Part shown: positions 9,962 through 57,064 of the stretch, one piece after another | How positions within the stretch are numbered: the stretch's first letter is position 1 | How the letters are laid out: the number at the start of each line of letters is the position of its first letter | Source: Candidatus Daviesbacteria bacterium | Lineage (GTDB): Bacteria; Patescibacteriota; Microgenomatia; Daviesbacterales; UBA10151 | Assembly (NCBI GenBank): GCA_016187035.1 | Contig: JACPKL010000008.1 | Coordinates: 99,990 to 163,989, forward strand | DNA length: 64,000 bases | Reading direction: 5' to 3' | Notes under the pieces: generated by a model | The model's database searches: none | What the model was told of the DNA's origin: nothing | The model's input: the letters and a program-made list of their open reading frames with translations, nothing else | Translations under genes and position numbers: made by a program

Positions 9962-10462
9962 ATGAATGCCCTAACAGAAGAAATTTTGGAGACTTTATCA
10001 GATCTTGCTTTCCATCCTCACAGATTATTTTATGGACGTTTAATAAAAGAATACTCCAGGAAAAGTTTGGGAGTCACAGTTCGCAGATTAGAACAAAAAG
10101 GATATATTGAGAGAGGAGTTATGGAGGATGAAGTTTGTATAAAATTAACAGAATTAGGTACCAAAAAATTAACAGAAAAAAGAAACCTCAGAAAAGAGAA
10201 AGCATTACTGAATTTAAGTGTTAAAGATGAAAAGTGGGATGGAAAATGGAGAATAGTAATCTTCGACATACCTGAGGTTAATAAGAGGATTAGACAGGCA
10301 TTAAGAGAAACTCTAAAGGTCTTGGAATTTTGGCCGCTGCAAAAGAGTGTTTGGATTTCCAAGAAAAATTACACAAAAGAACTTCGTAAATGGATAACGG
10401 ATTTAGATTTATCCAAACATATTCTGACTTTTGAAACAAAGGATTTAGGTAATAACAATTAG
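9962..10462 (+). CDS. PaaX-family-like regulator (wHTH N-terminus, Cas2/VapD-like ferredoxin-fold C-terminus)
   Basis: LGVTVRRLEQKGYIER wHTH. WDGKWRIVIFDIPEVNKRIRQALRETLKVLEFWPLQKSVWIS is the PaaX C-terminal/Cas2-like pattern. Confidence 0.5.
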   Translation: MNALTEEILETLSDLAFHPHRLFYGRLIKEYSRKSLGVTVRRLEQKGYIERGVMEDEVCIKLTELGTKKLTEKRNLRKEKALLNLSVKDEKWDGKWRIVIFDIPEVNKRIRQALRETLKVLEFWPLQKSVWISKKNYTKELRKWITDLDLSKHILTFETKDLGNNN

Positions 10463-10505: not shown

Positions 10506-10534
10506 TTGACAAAGATAAGGATTCATGCTAAACT
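10506..10534 (+). promoter_or_regulatory. sigma70-type promoter of the T-box leader
   Basis: TTGACA 10506-10511, 17-nt spacer, TAAACT 10529-10534. A TATAAT also occurs at 10539-10544. Confidence 0.5.
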
Positions 10535-10540
10535 GAACTA

Positions 10541-10828
10541 TAATTAAATAAGCAAGCTTGTTGCTTGCGCAATAAAAGCGTTTGAGTTTGGTTTCCCGCC
10601 AAACAAGCTGAGTAGGGTGACTACTACAGAAGGACACTGTAAAAATAGCTCCAAAGTGTGTTGCTTCGTAAGCTCAGCATAAACTAGCTTAAAGAAGATA
10701 AAGCATTAAGAATCTTTTATTAGACACACCATAGGGTGTGTTTTTTTAAGGTTAAAGCAAGGTGGTACCACGAGTCTTTACCTCGTCTTTGCAATAGCTT
10801 AATGCTGTTGTAAAGAGGAGGTTTTTTA
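10541..10828 (+). promoter_or_regulatory. T-box riboswitch leader (probably tRNA-Pro responsive)
   Basis: T-box sequence AAGCAAGGUGGUACCACGAG at 10755-10774. Antiterminator: A1 10757-10760/10789-10792, a GGUGGUA bulge, A2 10770-10774/10782-10786. Mutually exclusive 18-bp helix 10781-10798/10804-10821. Stem III-like hairpin 10724-10741. Downstream operon ends in proS. Confidence 0.6.
10781..10827 (+). terminator. T-box expression platform: terminator helix that also sequesters the SD
   Basis: CCTCGTCTTTGCAATAGC / GCTGTTGTAAAGAGGAGG (18 bp, 1 mismatch, 2 G-U pairs), loop TTAAT, then TTTTTT 10822-10827. The 3' arm contains AGGAGG 10816-10821, 7 nt before ATG 10829. Confidence 0.6.
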
Positions 10829-11593
10829 ATGGAAAGACTAAAAAGAATATTAGTAAAAGTAGGCACAAGTGCAATTAAAAATGGCAGTGGAATAGACCAG
10901 GAGTTAGTTAATGATTATGCAAGGCAAATTGCTTGGTTAAGAAGAAACTATGGAATTGAGACTATTATTGTAAGCTCTGGAGCGATTGCCAGCGGAAGAG
11001 TGCTTGAGCCTAATTTAACCAGAAGTATTATTGATAAACAGGTTGCTGCCATGTTTGGACAGCCTGAGTTAATGACGGCCTGGCGGAGAGCATTTCAAAG
11101 ACAAGACATGATAGCAGGAGAAGCTTTGTTAAAAGATGATGATCTTGAGAACTTTCGATATCCTCTTTTAAGAGCATTACAGTTTGGGGTTGTGGTTATA
11201 AATGGTAATGATGTAACTTATAACCAAGACGCCGAAGAAGAAATAATCTCTGCAGATAATGATAGGCTCTCTAGAGTAGTAGCTAACAGATGCGGGGTTG
11301 GTCTGTTAATTATGTTAACTGAAGCTGAAGGTATTTTAGATGAAGATAGAAAGGTAATTTCAAATATAGCGAGCTATTCAGACCTACACAGGATTAGTTT
11401 TTTTGAGAGAACACAGGAAGGTATAGGTGGACCAGGTTCTAAACTTTTAGAAGCCAGAAAGTTTATTACTGATGCTACTAAAATAGCATATATTGCAGGA
11501 GCTAGGATGGAAAATGTAATATTGAGAATAGCAACTGGTGAGAGAGTAGGAACAAGAGTAACGTTGCCTTTACAAGGATTTTTAAATATATGA
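10829..11593 (+). CDS. proB: glutamate 5-kinase-like amino-acid kinase (no PUA domain)
   Basis: VKVGTSAI, IVSSGAIASGR, KQVAAMFGQ, VINGNDV, SADNDRLS and GGPGSKLLEA align with ProB motifs. Confidence 0.65.
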   Translation: MERLKRILVKVGTSAIKNGSGIDQELVNDYARQIAWLRRNYGIETIIVSSGAIASGRVLEPNLTRSIIDKQVAAMFGQPELMTAWRRAFQRQDMIAGEALLKDDDLENFRYPLLRALQFGVVVINGNDVTYNQDAEEEIISADNDRLSRVVANRCGVGLLIMLTEAEGILDEDRKVISNIASYSDLHRISFFERTQEGIGGPGSKLLEARKFITDATKIAYIAGARMENVILRIATGERVGTRVTLPLQGFLNI

Positions 11594-11943
11594 TTAAGCC
11601 GCAAATTACATATGAAGATTTTGATAAGGTGGATATTAGGGTAGGGGAAGTAATTAAAGTTGAGGATTTTCCCAAGGCTCACAAACCTGCATATAAATTG
11701 ACCATAGATTTTGGGAGAGAAATTGGAATTAAAAAATCCTCAGCACAGCTGGTTAAAAATCAGACAAAAGAAGAATTGCTAGGAAAACAAGTGGTTTGTG
11801 TTGTAAATTTTGCTCCCAGACAAATTGGCCCTTTTGTTTCTGAAGTTTTAACATTAGGACCTGATGATGGTACAAACGAAGAGAGCAACTGGGTTGTCTT
11901 AACTCCCTTAAAGATAGTACCATTAGGAAGAGGAGTTAAATAG
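11590..11943 (+). CDS. tRNA-binding OB-fold protein (CsaA/Trbp111-like)
   Basis: FDKVDIRVGEVIKVEDFPKAHKPAYKLTIDFG..VVCVVNFAPRQIG. ATGA overlap with proB. Confidence 0.7.
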   Translation: MIKPQITYEDFDKVDIRVGEVIKVEDFPKAHKPAYKLTIDFGREIGIKKSSAQLVKNQTKEELLGKQVVCVVNFAPRQIGPFVSEVLTLGPDDGTNEESNWVVLTPLKIVPLGRGVK

Positions 11944-11945
11944 AG

Positions 11946-13388
11946 GTGAATAACCAGGTAAAAAGTATTACTAAAAAAAGTGATGATATTTCCGGCTGGT
12001 ATAATGATGTGATTGAGAAAGCTCAGCTGGCTGAGCATGGACCGGTTAAAGGTACTATAATTTTTAGGCCTAAAGGTTATGCTTTATGGGAAGCAATTCA
12101 AAAGAATTTGGATATTAGAATCAAAGATTTAGGTGCTCAAAATGCCTATTTTCCTTTGTTTATCCCTTATTCTTACTTACAAAAAGAAAAAGCACATGTT
12201 AAAGGTTTCTCTCCTGAATTAGCAGTGGTAACTCATGGAGGCGGTGAAAAATTAAAAGAGCCAGTGGTGGTTCGGCCTACCTCTGAAACCATTATGTATG
12301 AGGCATATTCCAGATGGATTCAATCTTTTAGAGATTTACCTTTAATTATTAATCAGTGGAATAATGTAGTGAGGTGGGAAAAGCGTCCTTACTATTTTTT
12401 AAGAACAACTGAATTTTTGTGGCAAGAAGGTCATAGTGCTCATGAAAGTAATGAGGATGCTCAAAAAATGGTAGAAAATGCTCTTAAAATGTATGTAGAC
12501 TTTTACCAAAGTGTTTTAGGCATCTATGGTTATGCTGGCAAAAAATCAGAATCTGAAAAATTTGCTGGGGCAGATTCAACTTTAACTTATGAGATGCTGA
12601 TGCCAGATGGTAAAATAGTTCAAGGCTGTACTTCCCATAATTTAGGTCAAAACTTTGCCAAAGCTTTTAAAGTGCAGTACCAAGATAACAAAGGTCAGCA
12701 GCAATTTGTTTCTCAAACTTCCTGGGGGTTATCCACCCGTTCTATTGGAGCTTTAATTTTAACTCACGGAGATGATAACGGGTTAGTTTTGCCTCCTCAA
12801 ATTGCCCCAACTCAAGTAGTGATTATTCCCATAGTAACTAAATCATCTGATCACGTTTCAATTAACAGGTTAGCAAGACAAGCTTTTGAAATATTGGAAG
12901 GTAATAATATCAGGGTAAAATTAGATGATTCTGATCAATCAATTGGTTGGAAGTTTAACCAATATGATTTGGAAGGGGTACCTATCAGGATAGAAATTGG
13001 AGGAAGGGAAGCGCAAAATCAGGAAGTGAGTATTAAACTAAGAAGTGACAAAGGAAGAGTAATAACCTCAATACTGGAAAATGTGGCAGAAGATGTTCAA
13101 AACTTGCTTCACGAAATCCAAGTTATTATGTTTGAGAAATCAAAAAAGTTTACTTTGGAAAATACCAGGCAAGCTGATAATTATGATCAGTTTAAAGAGA
13201 TAATGGAAACCAGCAGAGGGTTTATAGAAGCTTTCTGGTGTGAAGATCCAAATTGTGAGGCAAAAATAAAAGAAGAGACTAAGGCTACTACCAGGTGTTT
13301 GCCTGTAAATTCAATAGAAGCAAATGGTGAGTGTATTTATTGTAAAAAAAGCGCTAAATTCCGCTGGCTTTTTGGCCAGTCTTATTAA
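11946..13388 (+). CDS. proS: prolyl-tRNA synthetase, archaeal/eukaryote-like type
   Basis: Class IIa core (RPTSET, FLRTTEFLWQEGH) and a C-terminal Cys-rich domain ending ..FGQSY. GTG start. Confidence 0.9.
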   Translation: MNNQVKSITKKSDDISGWYNDVIEKAQLAEHGPVKGTIIFRPKGYALWEAIQKNLDIRIKDLGAQNAYFPLFIPYSYLQKEKAHVKGFSPELAVVTHGGGEKLKEPVVVRPTSETIMYEAYSRWIQSFRDLPLIINQWNNVVRWEKRPYYFLRTTEFLWQEGHSAHESNEDAQKMVENALKMYVDFYQSVLGIYGYAGKKSESEKFAGADSTLTYEMLMPDGKIVQGCTSHNLGQNFAKAFKVQYQDNKGQQQFVSQTSWGLSTRSIGALILTHGDDNGLVLPPQIAPTQVVIIPIVTKSSDHVSINRLARQAFEILEGNNIRVKLDDSDQSIGWKFNQYDLEGVPIRIEIGGREAQNQEVSIKLRSDKGRVITSILENVAEDVQNLLHEIQVIMFEKSKKFTLENTRQADNYDQFKEIMETSRGFIEAFWCEDPNCEAKIKEETKATTRCLPVNSIEANGECIYCKKSAKFRWLFGQSY

Positions 13389-13609: not shown

Positions 13610-13948
13610 ATGTCTACACCTGATATTCCTCAAGAAGGAAGGATAAATTTAGCGGAACAAAAAAGACAAAAGTTTATGTTTCCTGGAGAAGTTTTTTTGG
13701 GAGATTGGAAAAAAGGTCCAGAACGTCGTTATTCAGATTTAGTATACTATGATCAGAGATCTTGGGAGGCTCTAATACAGTCTTGGAACGATGAAAAAGC
13801 AAGACTATGCACGGCAGACTGGGCAAAGTATTATTTTGCAGAATCTGGCCTATTTAGATTAATAAGAGAGATACCAGCAATCTCGAGATTGGGTCGACTT
13901 ATATCCAGTAGGATGGGAATTGTAGCGATGCCTAAACTTGTGCCATAA
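13610..13948 (+). CDS. hypothetical protein (112 aa, Trp/Arg-rich, no recognisable motif)
   Basis: ORF only. Sits between the repeat cluster and tig. Confidence 0.4.
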   Translation: MSTPDIPQEGRINLAEQKRQKFMFPGEVFLGDWKKGPERRYSDLVYYDQRSWEALIQSWNDEKARLCTADWAKYYFAESGLFRLIREIPAISRLGRLISSRMGIVAMPKLVP

Positions 13949-40789: not shown

Positions 40790-41545
40790 ATGAAAAAATT
40801 TAAAGCTTTAATAATGGATTGCGATGGAACATTAATTTTACCTCAAAGAGATGCAATGCCAACACCTAAAGTAACTAAGGCAATAAAACAAGCTTCTAAA
40901 AAACTGCATGTGGGAATTGCTACTCAGCGTGCTACTCCTAACACTATTCCAATAATTAAACATCTAGATTTAATTGGTCCCTCAATTGTAGCTGGAGGGT
41001 CATTAATTATAGACAGTAAATCTCTTAAAGTTATAAAAGAAGAAATAATTGATTTTGACTCAATATATCAAGTTATAAAGATTGCCAAAGATTACAAAAA
41101 GTATGGAGGTCCTTTTTTAATTCAAGATAGTGAAAAAGGTGATGAAGAATGGGCTGAAAGTTACGTTATAGGAAAGCCAATTGGTTTATTTATTGGCAGT
41201 CTAAGCTATGATTTGGCGATTGAATTAGAGGATAAATTGTCAAAAATTCCTAATATTGCAGTACACAAAGTAATTCCCTGGGCAGGTCAGTTTGGCTTGG
41301 CAGTAAATGCAGCTTTAGCAACTAAGCAACATGGTATATTTGAAGTGGCAAAGATTTTGGGTATTAATACTCACGAGATAATAGGTATTGGGGATAGTTA
41401 TAATGATTTTCCTTTGCTGATGGCCTGTGGATTAAAGGTGGCTATGGGAAATGCAGTGGAGGAGTTAAAAGCGATTGCAGATTATATTGCACCATCTGTA
41501 GAGGAAGATGGGATAGTGGATGTGATTAATAAATTCGTACTATGA
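40790..41545 (+). CDS. HAD-superfamily (Cof-type, IIB) phosphatase
   Basis: LIMDCDGTL motif I and GDSYNDFPLL..AMGNA motif IV. ATG 40790 preferred to 40763. Confidence 0.7.
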   Translation: MKKFKALIMDCDGTLILPQRDAMPTPKVTKAIKQASKKLHVGIATQRATPNTIPIIKHLDLIGPSIVAGGSLIIDSKSLKVIKEEIIDFDSIYQVIKIAKDYKKYGGPFLIQDSEKGDEEWAESYVIGKPIGLFIGSLSYDLAIELEDKLSKIPNIAVHKVIPWAGQFGLAVNAALATKQHGIFEVAKILGINTHEIIGIGDSYNDFPLLMACGLKVAMGNAVEELKAIADYIAPSVEEDGIVDVINKFVL

Positions 41546-54207: not shown

Positions 54208-54273
54208 ATGATTAATATTGTTATGTTAAGAAAATCTTTAATTCTCCTTGCTGTCCTTATAAGCCAAGTTTAA
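54208..54273 (+). promoter_or_regulatory. ilv leader peptide ORF (21 codons, 12 Ile/Leu/Val)
   Basis: MINIVMLRKSLILLAVLISQV*. AGGA lies just upstream. The stop codon abuts attenuator region 2. Confidence 0.5.
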
Positions 54274-54305
54274 CTTGGAGGGAGACTAAAGATTTAAATT
54301 TTAAG

Positions 54306-54332
54306 ATCTCCCTAAGCAGGGAGATTTTTTTT
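54306..54332 (+). terminator. attenuator terminator (regions 3:4)
   Basis: ATCTCCCT 54306-54313, loop AAGC, AGGGAGAT 54318-54325, with the stem running into an 8-T run at 54325-54332. The competing antiterminator is AGGGAGA 54279-54285 with TCTCCCT 54307-54313. Confidence 0.65.
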
Positions 54333-54387
54333 GGAGAAAAAAATTATCTACCTACAGCTATCAGCTGTCAGATAAAAAATAAAAAAT

Positions 54388-54424: not shown

Positions 54425-55366
54425 ATGTCAAATCAAAAGCAGAAAGCAGAATATTTTCCCTATGCCTTTTTCCAAGAAAAAATAGTTCGTGTGGAAGATG
54501 CCAAAATATCTATTATGACTAATGCTTTACAATATGGCACTGGGATCTTTGCCGGTATCAGGGGTTATTATAATGAAAACAACGGTAAACCTTTTTTATC
54601 TGTTTTCAGGATAGAAGATCATTACACCAGGTTTTTGAATTCTTTAAAAATTATTGGAGTAAGTTTGGGTTACAATAAAGAGCAACTGATTGATATTACA
54701 CTAAACTTACTTAAGAAAAATAACCCCCACAAAGATACTTATGTCAGGCCTTTGGCTTACGCAGGAAGCGTTAATTTATCACCAAATTTAACCCGTGATA
54801 ACAAGTTTGACCTGGCCATTTATACCATTCCTTTGGGTGATTATTTACCAACAAATAAAGGTCTTTCTGCTAAAGTCTCTTCTTTTAGAAGAATATCTGA
54901 TAATGCTATTCCTGCCAGGGCAAAAATTTCAGGAGCATATATTAACTCAGCCTTAGCCAGAAAAGAAGCAGCAGATGCCGGTTTTGATGAAGCGATCTTT
55001 TTAACAGAAGACGGTCATGTAGCAGAAGGTTCTGCTGAAAATATATTTATTGTTAGAAATGGGATTTTAATTACCCCCCCAGTTTCTGATGAAGTTTTGG
55101 AAGGAGTTACCAGAAGAACTGTGATGGAGATTGCCAAGGAGGAAGATATCCCGGTTTTGGAAAGAAGCATTGACAGGTCTGAAATTTATATTGCTGATGA
55201 GGCTTTCTTCTGTGGTACCGGCGTGCAAGTTGTCTGGATTAATAATGTTGACGGAAGACAATTAGGCAATGGCAAGCGCGGACTGATTACTGCCAAAATT
55301 CAAGATAAATACTTCGGAATCGTCAGAGCCGGTGAGAGGCAGTGTACCAGGCTTAACCTTGTCTAA
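54425..55366 (+). CDS. ilvE: branched-chain amino acid aminotransferase
   Basis: Class IV aminotransferase: ALQYGTGIFAGIRGY, AKISGAYINS, EGSAENIF, LEGVTR. Confidence 0.9.
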   Translation: MSNQKQKAEYFPYAFFQEKIVRVEDAKISIMTNALQYGTGIFAGIRGYYNENNGKPFLSVFRIEDHYTRFLNSLKIIGVSLGYNKEQLIDITLNLLKKNNPHKDTYVRPLAYAGSVNLSPNLTRDNKFDLAIYTIPLGDYLPTNKGLSAKVSSFRRISDNAIPARAKISGAYINSALARKEAADAGFDEAIFLTEDGHVAEGSAENIFIVRNGILITPPVSDEVLEGVTRRTVMEIAKEEDIPVLERSIDRSEIYIADEAFFCGTGVQVVWINNVDGRQLGNGKRGLITAKIQDKYFGIVRAGERQCTRLNLV

Positions 55367-55378
55367 ACTACAAAACCT

Positions 55379-57064
55379 ATGAAACTTTCCGGCGGCCGCA
55401 TTTTAATGGAGTCTTTGCTAGAAAACCAAACTGATCTGATTTTTGGTTACCCTGGCGGGGCCATCATGCCAATTTATGATGCCCTTTATGATTATAAAGA
55501 TAAACTAAAGCATGTTTTAGTGCGTCACGAGCAAGGGGCAGCGCATGCTGCCGAAGGTTATGCCAGATTAAGCGGAAAAGTCGGGGTCTGTTTTGCCACC
55601 TCCGGCCCGGGAGCCACCAATCTGGTAACAGGAATTGCTGATGCCATGATGGACTCAGTGCCGCTGGTTTGTATCACAGGCCAGGTTTATGCAAATTTAC
55701 TGGGTACAGATGCTTTTCAGGAAACAGACATGATTGGTGTGACCACCCCTATTACTAAATGGAATTATCAAATTACAAAGCCTGATGAGGTGGCTGAAAC
55801 TATTGCCAAAGCTTTTTATATTGCCCGGACCGGCAGACCAGGGCCTGTATTAATAGATATTACCAAAAATGCTCAGATTGAAAAAGCAGACTTTAAATAC
55901 CCTCAAAAAATCTCTATTCCTTCATTTAAACTGCCTGGTAAACCAAATGATAATTTAGTAAAACAGGCTGCCAAATTAATCAATAATGCCCAAAAACCAT
56001 TTTTAATAGCAGGACATGGAGTAATTATTTCTAAAGCTTTTAATCAGCTAAAAACTTTAGCCCAAAAGGCGGATATTCCTGTTGCTTCAACTTTATTGGG
56101 TTTATCTGCCATACCTTCAAGCCACCCTTTAAGTATGGGTATTTTGGGTATGCATGGCAAGTATTCTACTAATGTCTTAACTAATCAGGCAGATGTAATT
56201 ATCGCAGTTGGAATGAGGTTTGATGACCGGGTGACTGGCCGGCTTAGTGAATATGCCAAACAGGCCAAGATTATCCATATAGATATTGACGCATCAGAAA
56301 TAAACAAAAATACCATTGCCAATGTAGCTATTAACGCTGATGCAAAATCAGCGCTAGAAGCTTTGATTCCTAAAATTAGCAAAAATGAACACACATCATG
56401 GCTGTCTGAGTTTAACAGGCTGGACCAGATTGAATTTGAAAAAGTCACCACTAAAGAGTTAACACCTCAAAATAACAAAATTAAAATGGCTCAGGTGGTA
56501 AATATGCTGTCAGATAAGACCAAAGGAAGGGCGGTTGTGGTGGCTGATGTAGGACAGCACCAGATGGTGACAGCCCGCTATTTTAAGTTTCAAAAAAATA
56601 ATTCATTTTTAACCTCAGGAGGAGCAGGTACCATGGGTTATGCTTTGCCAGCTGCTATTGGAGCAAAAATGGCCCAGCCCCAGACAGAGGTAATTGCCAT
56701 TATTGGTGATGGTTCTTTCCAAATGACAATCCAGGAATTGGCCACCATTGCCCAGGAAGGGATAGCCATCAAAATAATTATCCTGAACAATAAATTTTTA
56801 GGAATGGTCAGGCAATGGCAAGATTTATTTTTTGATAAAAGATATTCTTTTGTGGATTTAAAAAACCCTGATTTTGTAGCTGTTGCTAAAGGATTTTATA
56901 TTTATGGGGAAAAAGTAACCAGCTATTCGGATTTGGAAAAAGCAATTGAAAGACTTTTGAAAGCTAAAAAATCCTATCTGTTGGAAGTGGAAGTGGAAAA
57001 AGAAACCAATGTTTTTCCCATGGTGCCTGCCGGAGCATCTGTCGAAGAAGTGAGGTTAGAATGA
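55379..57064 (+). CDS. ilvB: acetolactate synthase large subunit
   Basis: ThDP enzyme: GYPGGAIMPIYDAL, TSGPGATNLVTGIADA, GDGSFQMTIQEL. Confidence 0.9.
   Translation: MKLSGGRILMESLLENQTDLIFGYPGGAIMPIYDALYDYKDKLKHVLVRHEQGAAHAAEGYARLSGKVGVCFATSGPGATNLVTGIADAMMDSVPLVCITGQVYANLLGTDAFQETDMIGVTTPITKWNYQITKPDEVAETIAKAFYIARTGRPGPVLIDITKNAQIEKADFKYPQKISIPSFKLPGKPNDNLVKQAAKLINNAQKPFLIAGHGVIISKAFNQLKTLAQKADIPVASTLLGLSAIPSSHPLSMGILGMHGKYSTNVLTNQADVIIAVGMRFDDRVTGRLSEYAKQAKIIHIDIDASEINKNTIANVAINADAKSALEALIPKISKNEHTSWLSEFNRLDQIEFEKVTTKELTPQNNKIKMAQVVNMLSDKTKGRAVVVADVGQHQMVTARYFKFQKNNSFLTSGGAGTMGYALPAAIGAKMAQPQTEVIAIIGDGSFQMTIQELATIAQEGIAIKIIILNNKFLGMVRQWQDLFFDKRYSFVDLKNPDFVAVAKGFYIYGEKVTSYSDLEKAIERLLKAKKSYLLEVEVEKETNVFPMVPAGASVEEVRLE

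Follow-up and report, generated by a model that had tools for sequence, protein, structure and literature searches.

A probable proline T-box riboswitch of minimal design upstream of a proB-like/proS operon in Candidatus Daviesbacteria

Which control element governs the presumed operon at positions 10829-13388 of a 64-kb stretch of DNA from Candidatus Daviesbacteria, a member of the Microgenomates group of the Patescibacteria (candidate phyla radiation [CPR])? The operon starts with a proB-like glutamate 5-kinase gene and ends with proS, and it is preceded by a long leader. A preliminary description of the sequence had proposed that this leader is a T-box riboswitch for tRNA-Pro, with a terminator helix that also buries the Shine-Dalgarno (SD) sequence. 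The present analysis of the window, as the whole 64-kb stretch is called here, makes it highly probable that the leader is a tRNA-sensing T-box riboswitch specific for tRNA-Pro and built to a minimal design. The identification of a T-box is supported by the match to the Rfam family RF00230, by a covariance model (R1) built from distant relatives, and by conservation and covariation among orthologous leaders. All features of the leader and its operon described below lie on the + strand.

Rfam was run both at gathering thresholds and in a permissive E-value mode. At gathering thresholds, the whole 64-kb window shows no family matches. In the permissive mode, RF00230 (T-box) is the best match to the leader and the sole T-box match in the window, covering the full model with 35.1 bits and with E-values of 2.6e-6 for the leader alone and 4e-4 for the whole 64-kb window. 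The scan with this model, recommended earlier as a check, thereby yields the T-box family as top match with a significant E-value and a score that lies far under the gathering score of 93. Taken alone, the match is suggestive of T-box identity and falls short of proof, and the loci of relatives (designated here by L numbers) were collected for this reason. Full-length sub-threshold matches to RF00230 are found in 9 of the 12 loci collected first, in the same gap 5' of the kinase gene, with 31.8 to 54.7 bits. L017 (full) and L018 (5' end missing), which were fetched later, also bear the leader element. Every member of the family found scores under the Rfam gathering threshold, and alignment of these leaders to RF00230 needs the deletion of 47 to 76 model positions, including the distal Stem I. 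In the Rfam alignment of L008, the F-box, Stem III, the AAA linker, and the antiterminator are placed as in the anatomy drawn by hand, and Stem IIA and a CGUUA F-box fall on the homologous ACGG...CCGUAA. Stem I of the same alignment is closed by CUCCUGAGCU, which lies inside the extended Stem II of L008 and is missing from most family members.

Model R1 was built from only four distant short-form leaders (L009, L011, L012, and L013). It matches seven untrained loci (L017, L005, L008, L001, L018, L016, and L003) with 34.8 to 111.5 bits, full-length in all of them except L018, the locus with the missing 5' end. R1 gives no match on L002, L014, and L015, three loci without the leader. In the window, searched with filters off on both strands, the top R1 match is the discriminator at 10746-10792 (24.8 bits; E of ~7e-4), and the decoding module and the SD/U-run region give weaker, separate matches; the match is split because of the long variable linker at 10653-10723. 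The exact GGTGGNANCRCG core occurs once in the 64-kb window, and the fold of the leader has a z-score of -6.1 relative to shuffled versions. No second T-box was found in the window by motif search, by Rfam in E-value mode, or by R1 with filters off; a T-box look-alike at 41088-41119 was rejected, as it lies inside a coding open reading frame (ORF).

The structure was compared across 11 full leaders. Scans with a kinase alignment gave one locus from a genome collection and one from a metagenome collection, and most orthologs were obtained through exact-protein look-ups. The leaders were segmented by hand because MAFFT misaligned their middle part, with every segmentation checked to reproduce the real sequence, and base pairs were counted on gap-free cores of fixed length from which variable loops and inserts had been removed. 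Standard pairs occupy 96.4% of the cells in the 11 leaders, compared to 72.8% in shuffles, none of which (0 of 500) reaches the observed value; a control in which the partners were slid against each other leaves 36 to 53% of cells paired. Both sides change in 19 of 28 pairs, distributed over Stem I (4/5), Stem II (4/5), Stem IIA (4/4), the pseudoknot (3/3), and the antiterminator helices A1 (2/6) and A2 (2/5). The decoding and discriminator domains are conserved jointly as one unit. An alignment of homologous leaders had been named as a check on the T-box proposal, and it reveals covariation together with a fixed proline codon.

The leader is not a constant companion of the kinase family. It is absent in three kinase relatives, L014 (2041-2076), L015 (2905-2960), and L002 (1-603); in L014, the kinase gene follows rseP by 34 nt, and in L015, it is preceded by no more than a short untranslated region and a promoter-like site. 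Some lineages of the family have thus either lost the leader or never acquired it. L001 (contig CAZDFU010000012.1), labelled as uncultured Gammaproteobacteria, encodes a kinase 57% identical to that of the window, and its T-box leader is the same, the specifier being CCU; its bin is probably misclassified or chimeric.

The decoding module opens with an ultrashort Stem I at 10575-10609. Its base consists of AAAGC (10575-79) and GCU (10607-09), which are invariant in the 11 leaders, and on it follow kink-turn (K-turn)-like strands, GUUUGAG (10580-86) and CAA (10604-06), recognized by their sequence pattern. Above these lies a 5-bp stem pairing 10587-91 with 10599-10603, in which four of five pairs change on both sides, capped by the 7-nt apical specifier loop UUUCCCG (10592-98). 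This Stem I lacks a specifier internal loop, an AG bulge, and the distal elbow-binding platform. In most orthologs, the K-turn pattern has AGC, a bulge of 3 nt, and GA in one strand, opposite RA and GCU in the other; L012 shows GG at the K-turn strand position. Since AAAGC and GCU never vary, their helix and the K-turn rest on sequence pattern, and Stem I is probably K-turn based. An additional hairpin, which the window leader does not have, separates the Stem I 3' strand from the K-turn in 8 of the 11 leaders. The idea of an ultrashort Stem I had been put forward in the preliminary description and proves right, with the correction that the hairpin is 10587-10603 and not 10625-10670. The latter can be drawn; it is not conserved in orthologs, which have Stem IIA and a pseudoknot in its place.

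Of the 11 apical loops, eight are UUU-CCC-G, two are UAC-CCA-G, and one is AUU-CCU-A. Loop positions 4 to 6 always form a proline codon, with the wobble base varying, and position 7 is always a purine; on these grounds, the specifier of the window is read as CCC (Pro) at 10595-97, followed by the purine G at 10598. The two UACCCAG loops allow a second reading, CCC and then A, which likewise specifies proline. A proline specifier fits the glutamate 5-kinase homologue and the prolyl-tRNA synthetase (ProRS) encoded downstream. Specificity for tRNA-Pro, as proposed, is thus supported by a proline codon plus purine in all 11 leaders and by the proline-related genes that follow. Two specifiers had been considered before. 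The one then listed as an alternative, in the loop region 10595-10601, is supported by the orthologs in the form of CCC 10595-97 and G 10598. The preferred one, CCA-A at 10651-54, fails: orthologs have UGG, ACC, AUC, or ACU there, covarying with the Stem IIA loop, and UCC 10650-52 is the pseudoknot partner of GGA 10632-34.

Stem I is followed by a miniature Stem II at 10611-10625, in which AGUAG (10611-15) pairs with CUACU (10621-25) around the pentaloop GGUGA and four of five pairs covary. Across the family, a Stem II of only 5 bp with a GAUGA-like pentaloop (GAUGA, GAAGA, or GGUGA) is found in 8 of the 11 full leaders, or 9 of 12 if the partial L018 is included. In L001 (2813-2848), L008 (2820-2857), and L017 (1083-1122), an extension of 26 to 30 nt replaces the pentaloop. 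It contains purine tracts such as GAAGGAAUAAGUA, GAAGGAA, and AGUA-like sequences; of these, Rfam aligns GAAGGAAUAAGUA to GAA...AGUA of the canonical Stem II. A single family thus holds both long and miniature forms of Stem II and offers a natural deletion series. The small Stem II may be tolerated owing to the codon-anticodon helix being made of G-C pairs throughout. For the ileS T-box of Mycobacterium tuberculosis, a shortened Stem II abolished tRNA binding (PMC11297988).

In the Stem IIA/B pseudoknot at 10626-10652, all seven pairs change on both sides. Stem IIA pairs ACAG (10626-29) with CUGU (10637-40; 4/4 pairs covary), and the pseudoknot pairs GGA (10632-34) with UCC (10650-52; 3/3 pairs covary); the latter appears in the orthologs as GGA:UCC, CCA:UGG, CAA:UUG, GAU:AUC, or GGU:ACC. 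The F-box-like CUGUAA at 10637-42, which is CCGUAA in orthologs, is composed of the Stem IIA 3' strand and adenosines. A three-base-pair pseudoknot joining Stem IIA/B with the linker is known from the ileS T-box of M. tuberculosis (PMC11297988), and the present pairing corresponds to it. The variable linker at 10653-10723 is not conserved; the short-form orthologs have a far shorter one than the window clade. A long-range helix of GCUGAG (10607-12) with CUCAGC (10673-78) can be formed in the window only and was treated as chance, because it is found in neither L003 nor L016.

Stem III, at 10724-10747, pairs ACACACC (10724-30) with GGUGUGU (10735-41) and is followed by U6 (10742-47). A run of U5-6 after Stem III is restricted to the window clade and gives the hairpin a terminator-like or pause-like look; L003 and L016 keep hairpin and U-run at this place despite different stem sequences. 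Distant orthologs have Stem III without the U-run or no clear Stem III at all, and the element is marginal or absent in the shortest leaders. AG, usually AAG, stands 5' of Stem III and AA(A) stands 3' of it, a purine pattern that is given in a T-box review (PMC7583486). In the window clade, Stem III and its U-run may, as a speculation, stall or partly terminate transcription and so allow time for a tRNA that binds slowly.

The discriminator and the expression platform carry the features by which the T-box was initially noticed. The T-box sequence AAGCAAGGTGGTACCACGAG is present at 10755-10774, where it had been reported; the segment AAGGUGGUACCACG agrees with the conserved T-box sequence AGGGUGGNACCGCG at 11 of 13 specified positions. 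The discriminator, or antiterminator, at 10757-10792 consists of helix A1, with GCAAGG (10757-62) pairing with CUUUGC (10787-92; 2/6 pairs covary), the 7-nt bulge UGGUACC (10763-69), and helix A2, with ACGAG (10770-74) pairing with CUCGU (10782-86; 2/5 pairs covary). The UGGU of the bulge would pair with the ACCA at the tRNA 3' end. The two-helix antiterminator around a UGGN bulge described before is accordingly found in place, with both helices covarying.

The competing off-state hairpin at 10781-10827 is both terminator-like and a sequestrator of the SD. Its helix joins 10781-98 with 10804-21 through 17 pairs and one G.G mismatch, so that the competing helix announced previously stands, with one pair fewer than the 18 bp then counted. 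Its 5' arm (10781-98) takes in the strands that form the 3' sides of A2 and A1, which makes the two folds mutually exclusive. The 3' arm holds the SD GGAGG (10817-21), after which come T6 (10822-27), one A, and the ATG at 10829. RNAfold gives the off-state hairpin -26.8 kcal/mol in the window, compared to -8.1 kcal/mol for the antiterminator. Among the nine leaders for which energies were computed (the window and eight orthologs; the hairpins of L008 and L011 were read by eye), the off state is the more stable in each, with -8 to -27 versus -5 to -9 kcal/mol. All 11 full leaders have GGAGG in the off-state 3' arm, U6-8 directly after it, and the start codon 0 to 1 nt further on; the claim that a terminator-like helix buries the SD is thus consistent with each of these leaders. 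The helix is built in three ways, in the window clade, in L012, and in a GCACC...GGUGC group, and the overlap of hairpin, SD, and U-run is present in each. That the overlap is kept across three strand sets points to selection on it. Among 24 SD-bearing ORFs in the window, the kinase ORF alone has a T-run of at least 5 between SD and start. Attenuation by a leader peptide was rejected for this leader, as the only internal AUG (10801, found by eye) opens a 3-codon ORF without proline codons.

From the known T-box mechanism and the anatomy of the leader, the following course of events is proposed. Transcription would start near 10541, and the anticodon of tRNA-Pro would pair with CCC 10595-97 in the apical loop, assisted by the miniature Stem II and the pseudoknot. 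An uncharged tRNA would then pair through its 3' ACCA with UGGU 10763-66 and stabilize the weak antiterminator at 10757-92; RNA polymerase would then read through, the SD would be single-stranded, and the kinase, the CsaA-like protein, and ProRS would be made. With charged tRNA, or with none, the antiterminator's 3' strands would instead pair with 10804-21, and the resulting off-state hairpin would stop transcription at the U-run and at the same time hide GGAGG. Transcripts that escape, or that refold after the tRNA leaves, would also be translationally silent. The off-state hairpin looks like an intrinsic terminator because U6 follows it directly, with the AUG one base later. Granted a proline T-box, its use at both levels, transcription and translation, is favored tentatively, at a little less than an even chance; control of transcription only is then rather unlikely, and control of translation only is slightly less likely again. 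It is possible, and put forward with some reserve, that the CPR leaders constitute a T-box class in which co-transcriptional termination is achieved with only the ultrashort Stem I and the 5-bp Stem II and the same hairpin serves as a post-transcriptional lock on the SD. The GC-rich CCC-GGG pairing, and perhaps a pause at the Stem III hairpin plus U-run, could compensate for the missing platform.

T-boxes are a much-studied case in which one structured RNA reads another. These alternatives have to be seen against the two separate classes, transcriptional and translational, into which a T-box review divides the known representatives (PMC7583486). T-boxes with a long Stem I act on transcription and occur mostly in Firmicutes, and those with a short Stem I act on translation and are mostly found upstream of actinobacterial ileS (PMC7583486). 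According to this review, transcriptional T-boxes generally require the long Stem I platform for fast capture of the tRNA (PMC7583486, section 6.2).

Several observations weigh against the proposed proline T-box of minimal design. The leader lacks the long Stem I platform which that review requires for transcriptional T-boxes (PMC7583486). The RF00230 score lies under the curated threshold, and the Rfam alignment misplaces Stem I: in the window it begins at 10601 and puts the K-turn and specifier on the Stem II region, the true Stem I starting at 10575, as judged from the orthologs. The K-turn strands of the window show GA and AA instead of GA and GA. A search for tRNA-Pro genes in the window and the loci found none. 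The alignment was curated around the proposed structure and its loops were cut out, and its counts lean toward that structure; the 11 leaders also represent about four clades, with fewer independent changes than cells. A crude scan of 20 kb of the genome found 11 hairpin-plus-U-run sites where 14.6 were expected, and because there is no excess of terminator-like sites, intrinsic termination in this host is an assumption.

Among the rival explanations, a proline T-box acting on transcription alone survives best, and even this is judged unlikely overall. The SD would lie in the terminator arm merely from tight packing in small genomes, the hairpin and U-run have a canonical terminator geometry, and after antitermination the ribosome could load before the RNA refolds. 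However, the SD is paired in all three versions of the helix, which looks selected and not incidental, and the dominant off-state hairpin should re-form and hide the SD once the tRNA leaves.

A translation-only proline T-box like the actinobacterial ileS class, with the hairpin as an SD sequestrator and the U-run as a spacer or ribosome standby site, is given somewhat less weight. An ultrashort Stem I without an elbow platform has so far been the hallmark of translational T-boxes, and such RNAs bind tRNA too slowly for a co-transcriptional choice, according to the kinetic argument in section 6.2 of the review (PMC7583486). GGAGG in the 3' arm of every ortholog and the lack of surplus terminator-like sites in the genome agree with this explanation as well. 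It is less compatible with the U-run: U6-8 abuts the helix base in 11 of 11 full leaders despite three strand sets, yet a T-run of this kind (at least 5) occupies just 1 of the 24 SD-start spacers of the window. The energy difference between the two folds given above also suits a one-shot transcriptional choice over a bistable equilibrium.

Far less probable is a separate small RNA or constitutive attenuator that ends at 10724-10747, with the operon expressed from elsewhere. Stem III and U6 of the window clade are terminator-like, hairpin and U-run are kept in L003 and L016, and 10724-10747 gives a weak Rfam match to a terminator-like Bacillus small RNA. The stretch from 10757 to the ATG, however, is fully used by T-box elements, and the free positions 10748-10756 are too short for a promoter; distant orthologs keep the rest of the leader without a U-run after Stem III, and decoding and discriminator domains are conserved as one unit. 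Least probable of all is a protein operator, such as ProRS autoregulation in the manner of E. coli thrS: the 5-bp stem and its 7-nt loop are sized like an anticodon arm, and a tRNA-binding protein and ProRS are encoded downstream, but the wobble position varies among synonymous codons, the leader bears the full T-box discriminator with UGGN bulge and mutually exclusive hairpin, and the loop, holding a proline codon and not an anticodon, is complementary to tRNA-Pro and therefore no mimic of it.

The probable proline T-box is preceded by a putative sigma-70-type promoter, TTGACA-17-TAAACT with a TG-extended -10 (10506-10534), which matches the consensus at 10 of 12 positions and is present as first described. 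The transcription start is predicted near 10541 from this consensus match only. Promoter-like sites, again consensus matches and mostly with TGn, lie upstream in 10 of 11 orthologous leaders, and in six orthologous leaders the -10 ends 8 to 11 nt 5' of AAAGC. Between the predicted start and the T-box, the window has an extra 5' hairpin, GCAAGC-UUGUU-GCUUGC (10552-10568), which is found in the window alone, is missing even from its closest relatives L003 and L016, and is not conserved.

The operon presumed to be under the control of the leader comprises three genes. The first encodes a proB-like glutamate 5-kinase without a PUA domain (10829-11593), the second a CsaA/Trbp111-type tRNA-binding protein (11590-11943), and the third an archaeal-type prolyl-tRNA synthetase (proS; 11946-13388), which scores 567 bits against a cut-off of 437. 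The kinase is 100% identical to a protein annotated in a Candidatus Daviesbacteria genome. Glutamate 5-kinase is its top family match with 108 bits, under the curated cut-off of 186, and the solved structures closest to it are all glutamate 5-kinases (best E-value, 3.9e-23). The earlier assignment of a proB-like/csaA-like/proS operon agrees with these family matches and solved relatives. Related loci show a conserved gene order of rpsB, tsf, frr, rseP, one to two small genes in some, a gap of 200 to 300 nt, the kinase, csaA in some, proS, and tig. The kinase gene adjoins proS in every related locus in which the downstream gene is visible, with csaA lying between them in some.

The type of ProRS differs among the kinase-proS loci (the window, L003, L005, L008, L009, L011, L012, L013, L017, and L018). 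Three forms occur, depending on the locus: archaeal with a ProRS-C_1 domain, bacterial with an editing domain (566 to 575 amino acids [aa]), and short (408 to 409 aa). Because the adjacency persists despite the differing ProRS types, it suggests a functional tie of the kinase to prolyl-tRNA synthesis beyond canonical proline biosynthesis. The gene immediately 5' of the leader (9962-10462) codes for a protein of 166 aa with a PaaX central (Cas2-like) domain (E-value, 1.4e-22); the protein matches full PaaX regulators weakly, and the gene is outside the conserved gene order of the relatives. Between proS and tig, at a distance of ~220 nt from proS, lies an ORF of 112 aa (13610-13948), for which no Pfam or NCBIfam match was found.

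A second candidate for amino acid-dependent control is located elsewhere in the window, in the 325-nt intergenic region upstream of 54425-57064, which encodes an ilvE-like class IV aminotransferase and an acetolactate-synthase-like thiamine pyrophosphate enzyme. At 54208-54333 (+ strand), the region contains a 21-codon ORF, MINIVMLRKSLILLAVLISQV, with 12 of 21 residues being Ile, Leu, or Val and with AGGA 4 nt upstream. After this ORF, AGGGAGA at 54279-85 or 54319-25 can alternatively pair with UCUCCCU 54308-14, followed by U8. Rfam reports a sub-threshold match to Phe_leader in the region upstream of the ilvE-like gene (38.7 bits versus 55; E of 0.007). To judge by these features, the region 54208-54333 has the look of a classical attenuator in a CPR genome, working through a leader peptide and serving branched-chain amino acids. 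However, a promoter-like TTGACG-17-TGATAAT is located between the terminator and the ilvE start codon.

How does the leader of the proB-like operon relate to known T-boxes? The actinobacterial comparators are the translational ileS T-boxes of M. tuberculosis, M. smegmatis, and Nocardia farcinica (PDB 6UFM). Like these, the leader has a short Stem I without platform, in its own case probably K-turn based, a Stem II, a IIA/B pseudoknot, and an F-box-like strand (PMC10651847, PMC11297988, PMC7583486), and it shares with them the UGGN bulge in the discriminator and the sequestration of the SD in the off state. The specifier of the actinobacterial ileS Stem I is in the apical loop too, by our reading of PMC10651847, which does not state this directly. 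The actinobacterial T-boxes differ in carrying the Ile specifier AUC upstream of ileS, whereas CCC, CCA, or CCU for proline precedes proB-like and proS genes in Patescibacteria. They possess a long Stem II with an S-turn, in contrast to the mostly 5-bp stem with pentaloop found here, and a sequestrator without a terminator, in contrast to the conserved U6-8 directly after the helix. Some members of the present family are without a clear Stem III, unlike actinobacterial ileS.

With the transcriptional T-boxes of Firmicutes (RF00230; tyrS and glyQS of Bacillus subtilis), the leader shares the T-box sequence, the two-helix antiterminator, the 7-nt bulge, the competing terminator-like hairpin with U-run, the F-box, and Stem IIA/B, as well as a specifier that fits the downstream genes and is followed by a purine, and, as far as it can be deduced here, the K-turn at the Stem I base. 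Unlike them, it has no specifier internal loop, AG bulge, or distal platform, and its SD lies in the 3' arm of the terminator with the U-run ending at the start codon. In Firmicutes T-box leaders, the SD is usually a separate element set off by a spacer. The proline T-boxes of this phylum stand before proBA and proI in B. subtilis and before proS in clostridia and have a long canonical Stem I; the placement of a tRNA-Pro T-box before proB and proS genes is common to them and to the present family. Pro T-boxes in TBDB reportedly prefer codons ending in U (bioRxiv 10.1101/2020.06.17.157016), whereas CCC dominates here. The E. coli lysC riboswitch offers a further parallel, as one structure acts there at two levels, translation and RNase E cleavage. 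In both cases one ligand-controlled fold would affect more than one step of expression; the ligand, the fold, and the second step differ.

A full-text literature search, which was not exhaustive, found no description of a T-box in CPR/Patescibacteria, in agreement with the earlier remark that T-boxes are not well described in this lineage; an earlier description is possible. The search for the short class in TBDB covered Actinobacteria reference genomes and sequences already detected by Rfam only (PMC7778990). Nor did the literature searched describe the combination of an ultrashort decoding module with a terminator-like platform that covers the SD, for proline and in Patescibacteria.

The leader family mixes two T-box plans, and does so for another amino acid and in a third lineage, one that branches deeply and has been little studied. 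If it acts co-transcriptionally, the elbow platform would be no general requirement for transcriptional T-boxes, and the family offers a natural test of this point. The leader of L012, with ~156 nt from the Stem I base to the end of the U-run, is a very small natural T-box for structural work and engineering. Curated thresholds and searches restricted to few phyla miss T-boxes of uncultivated bacteria. If the identification holds, the T-box mechanism extends to Patescibacteria, which bears on the age of the mechanism, and a PUA-less proB-like kinase and a CsaA-like tRNA-binding protein would be tied to the physiology of proline and tRNA-Pro in organisms whose biosynthesis is reduced.

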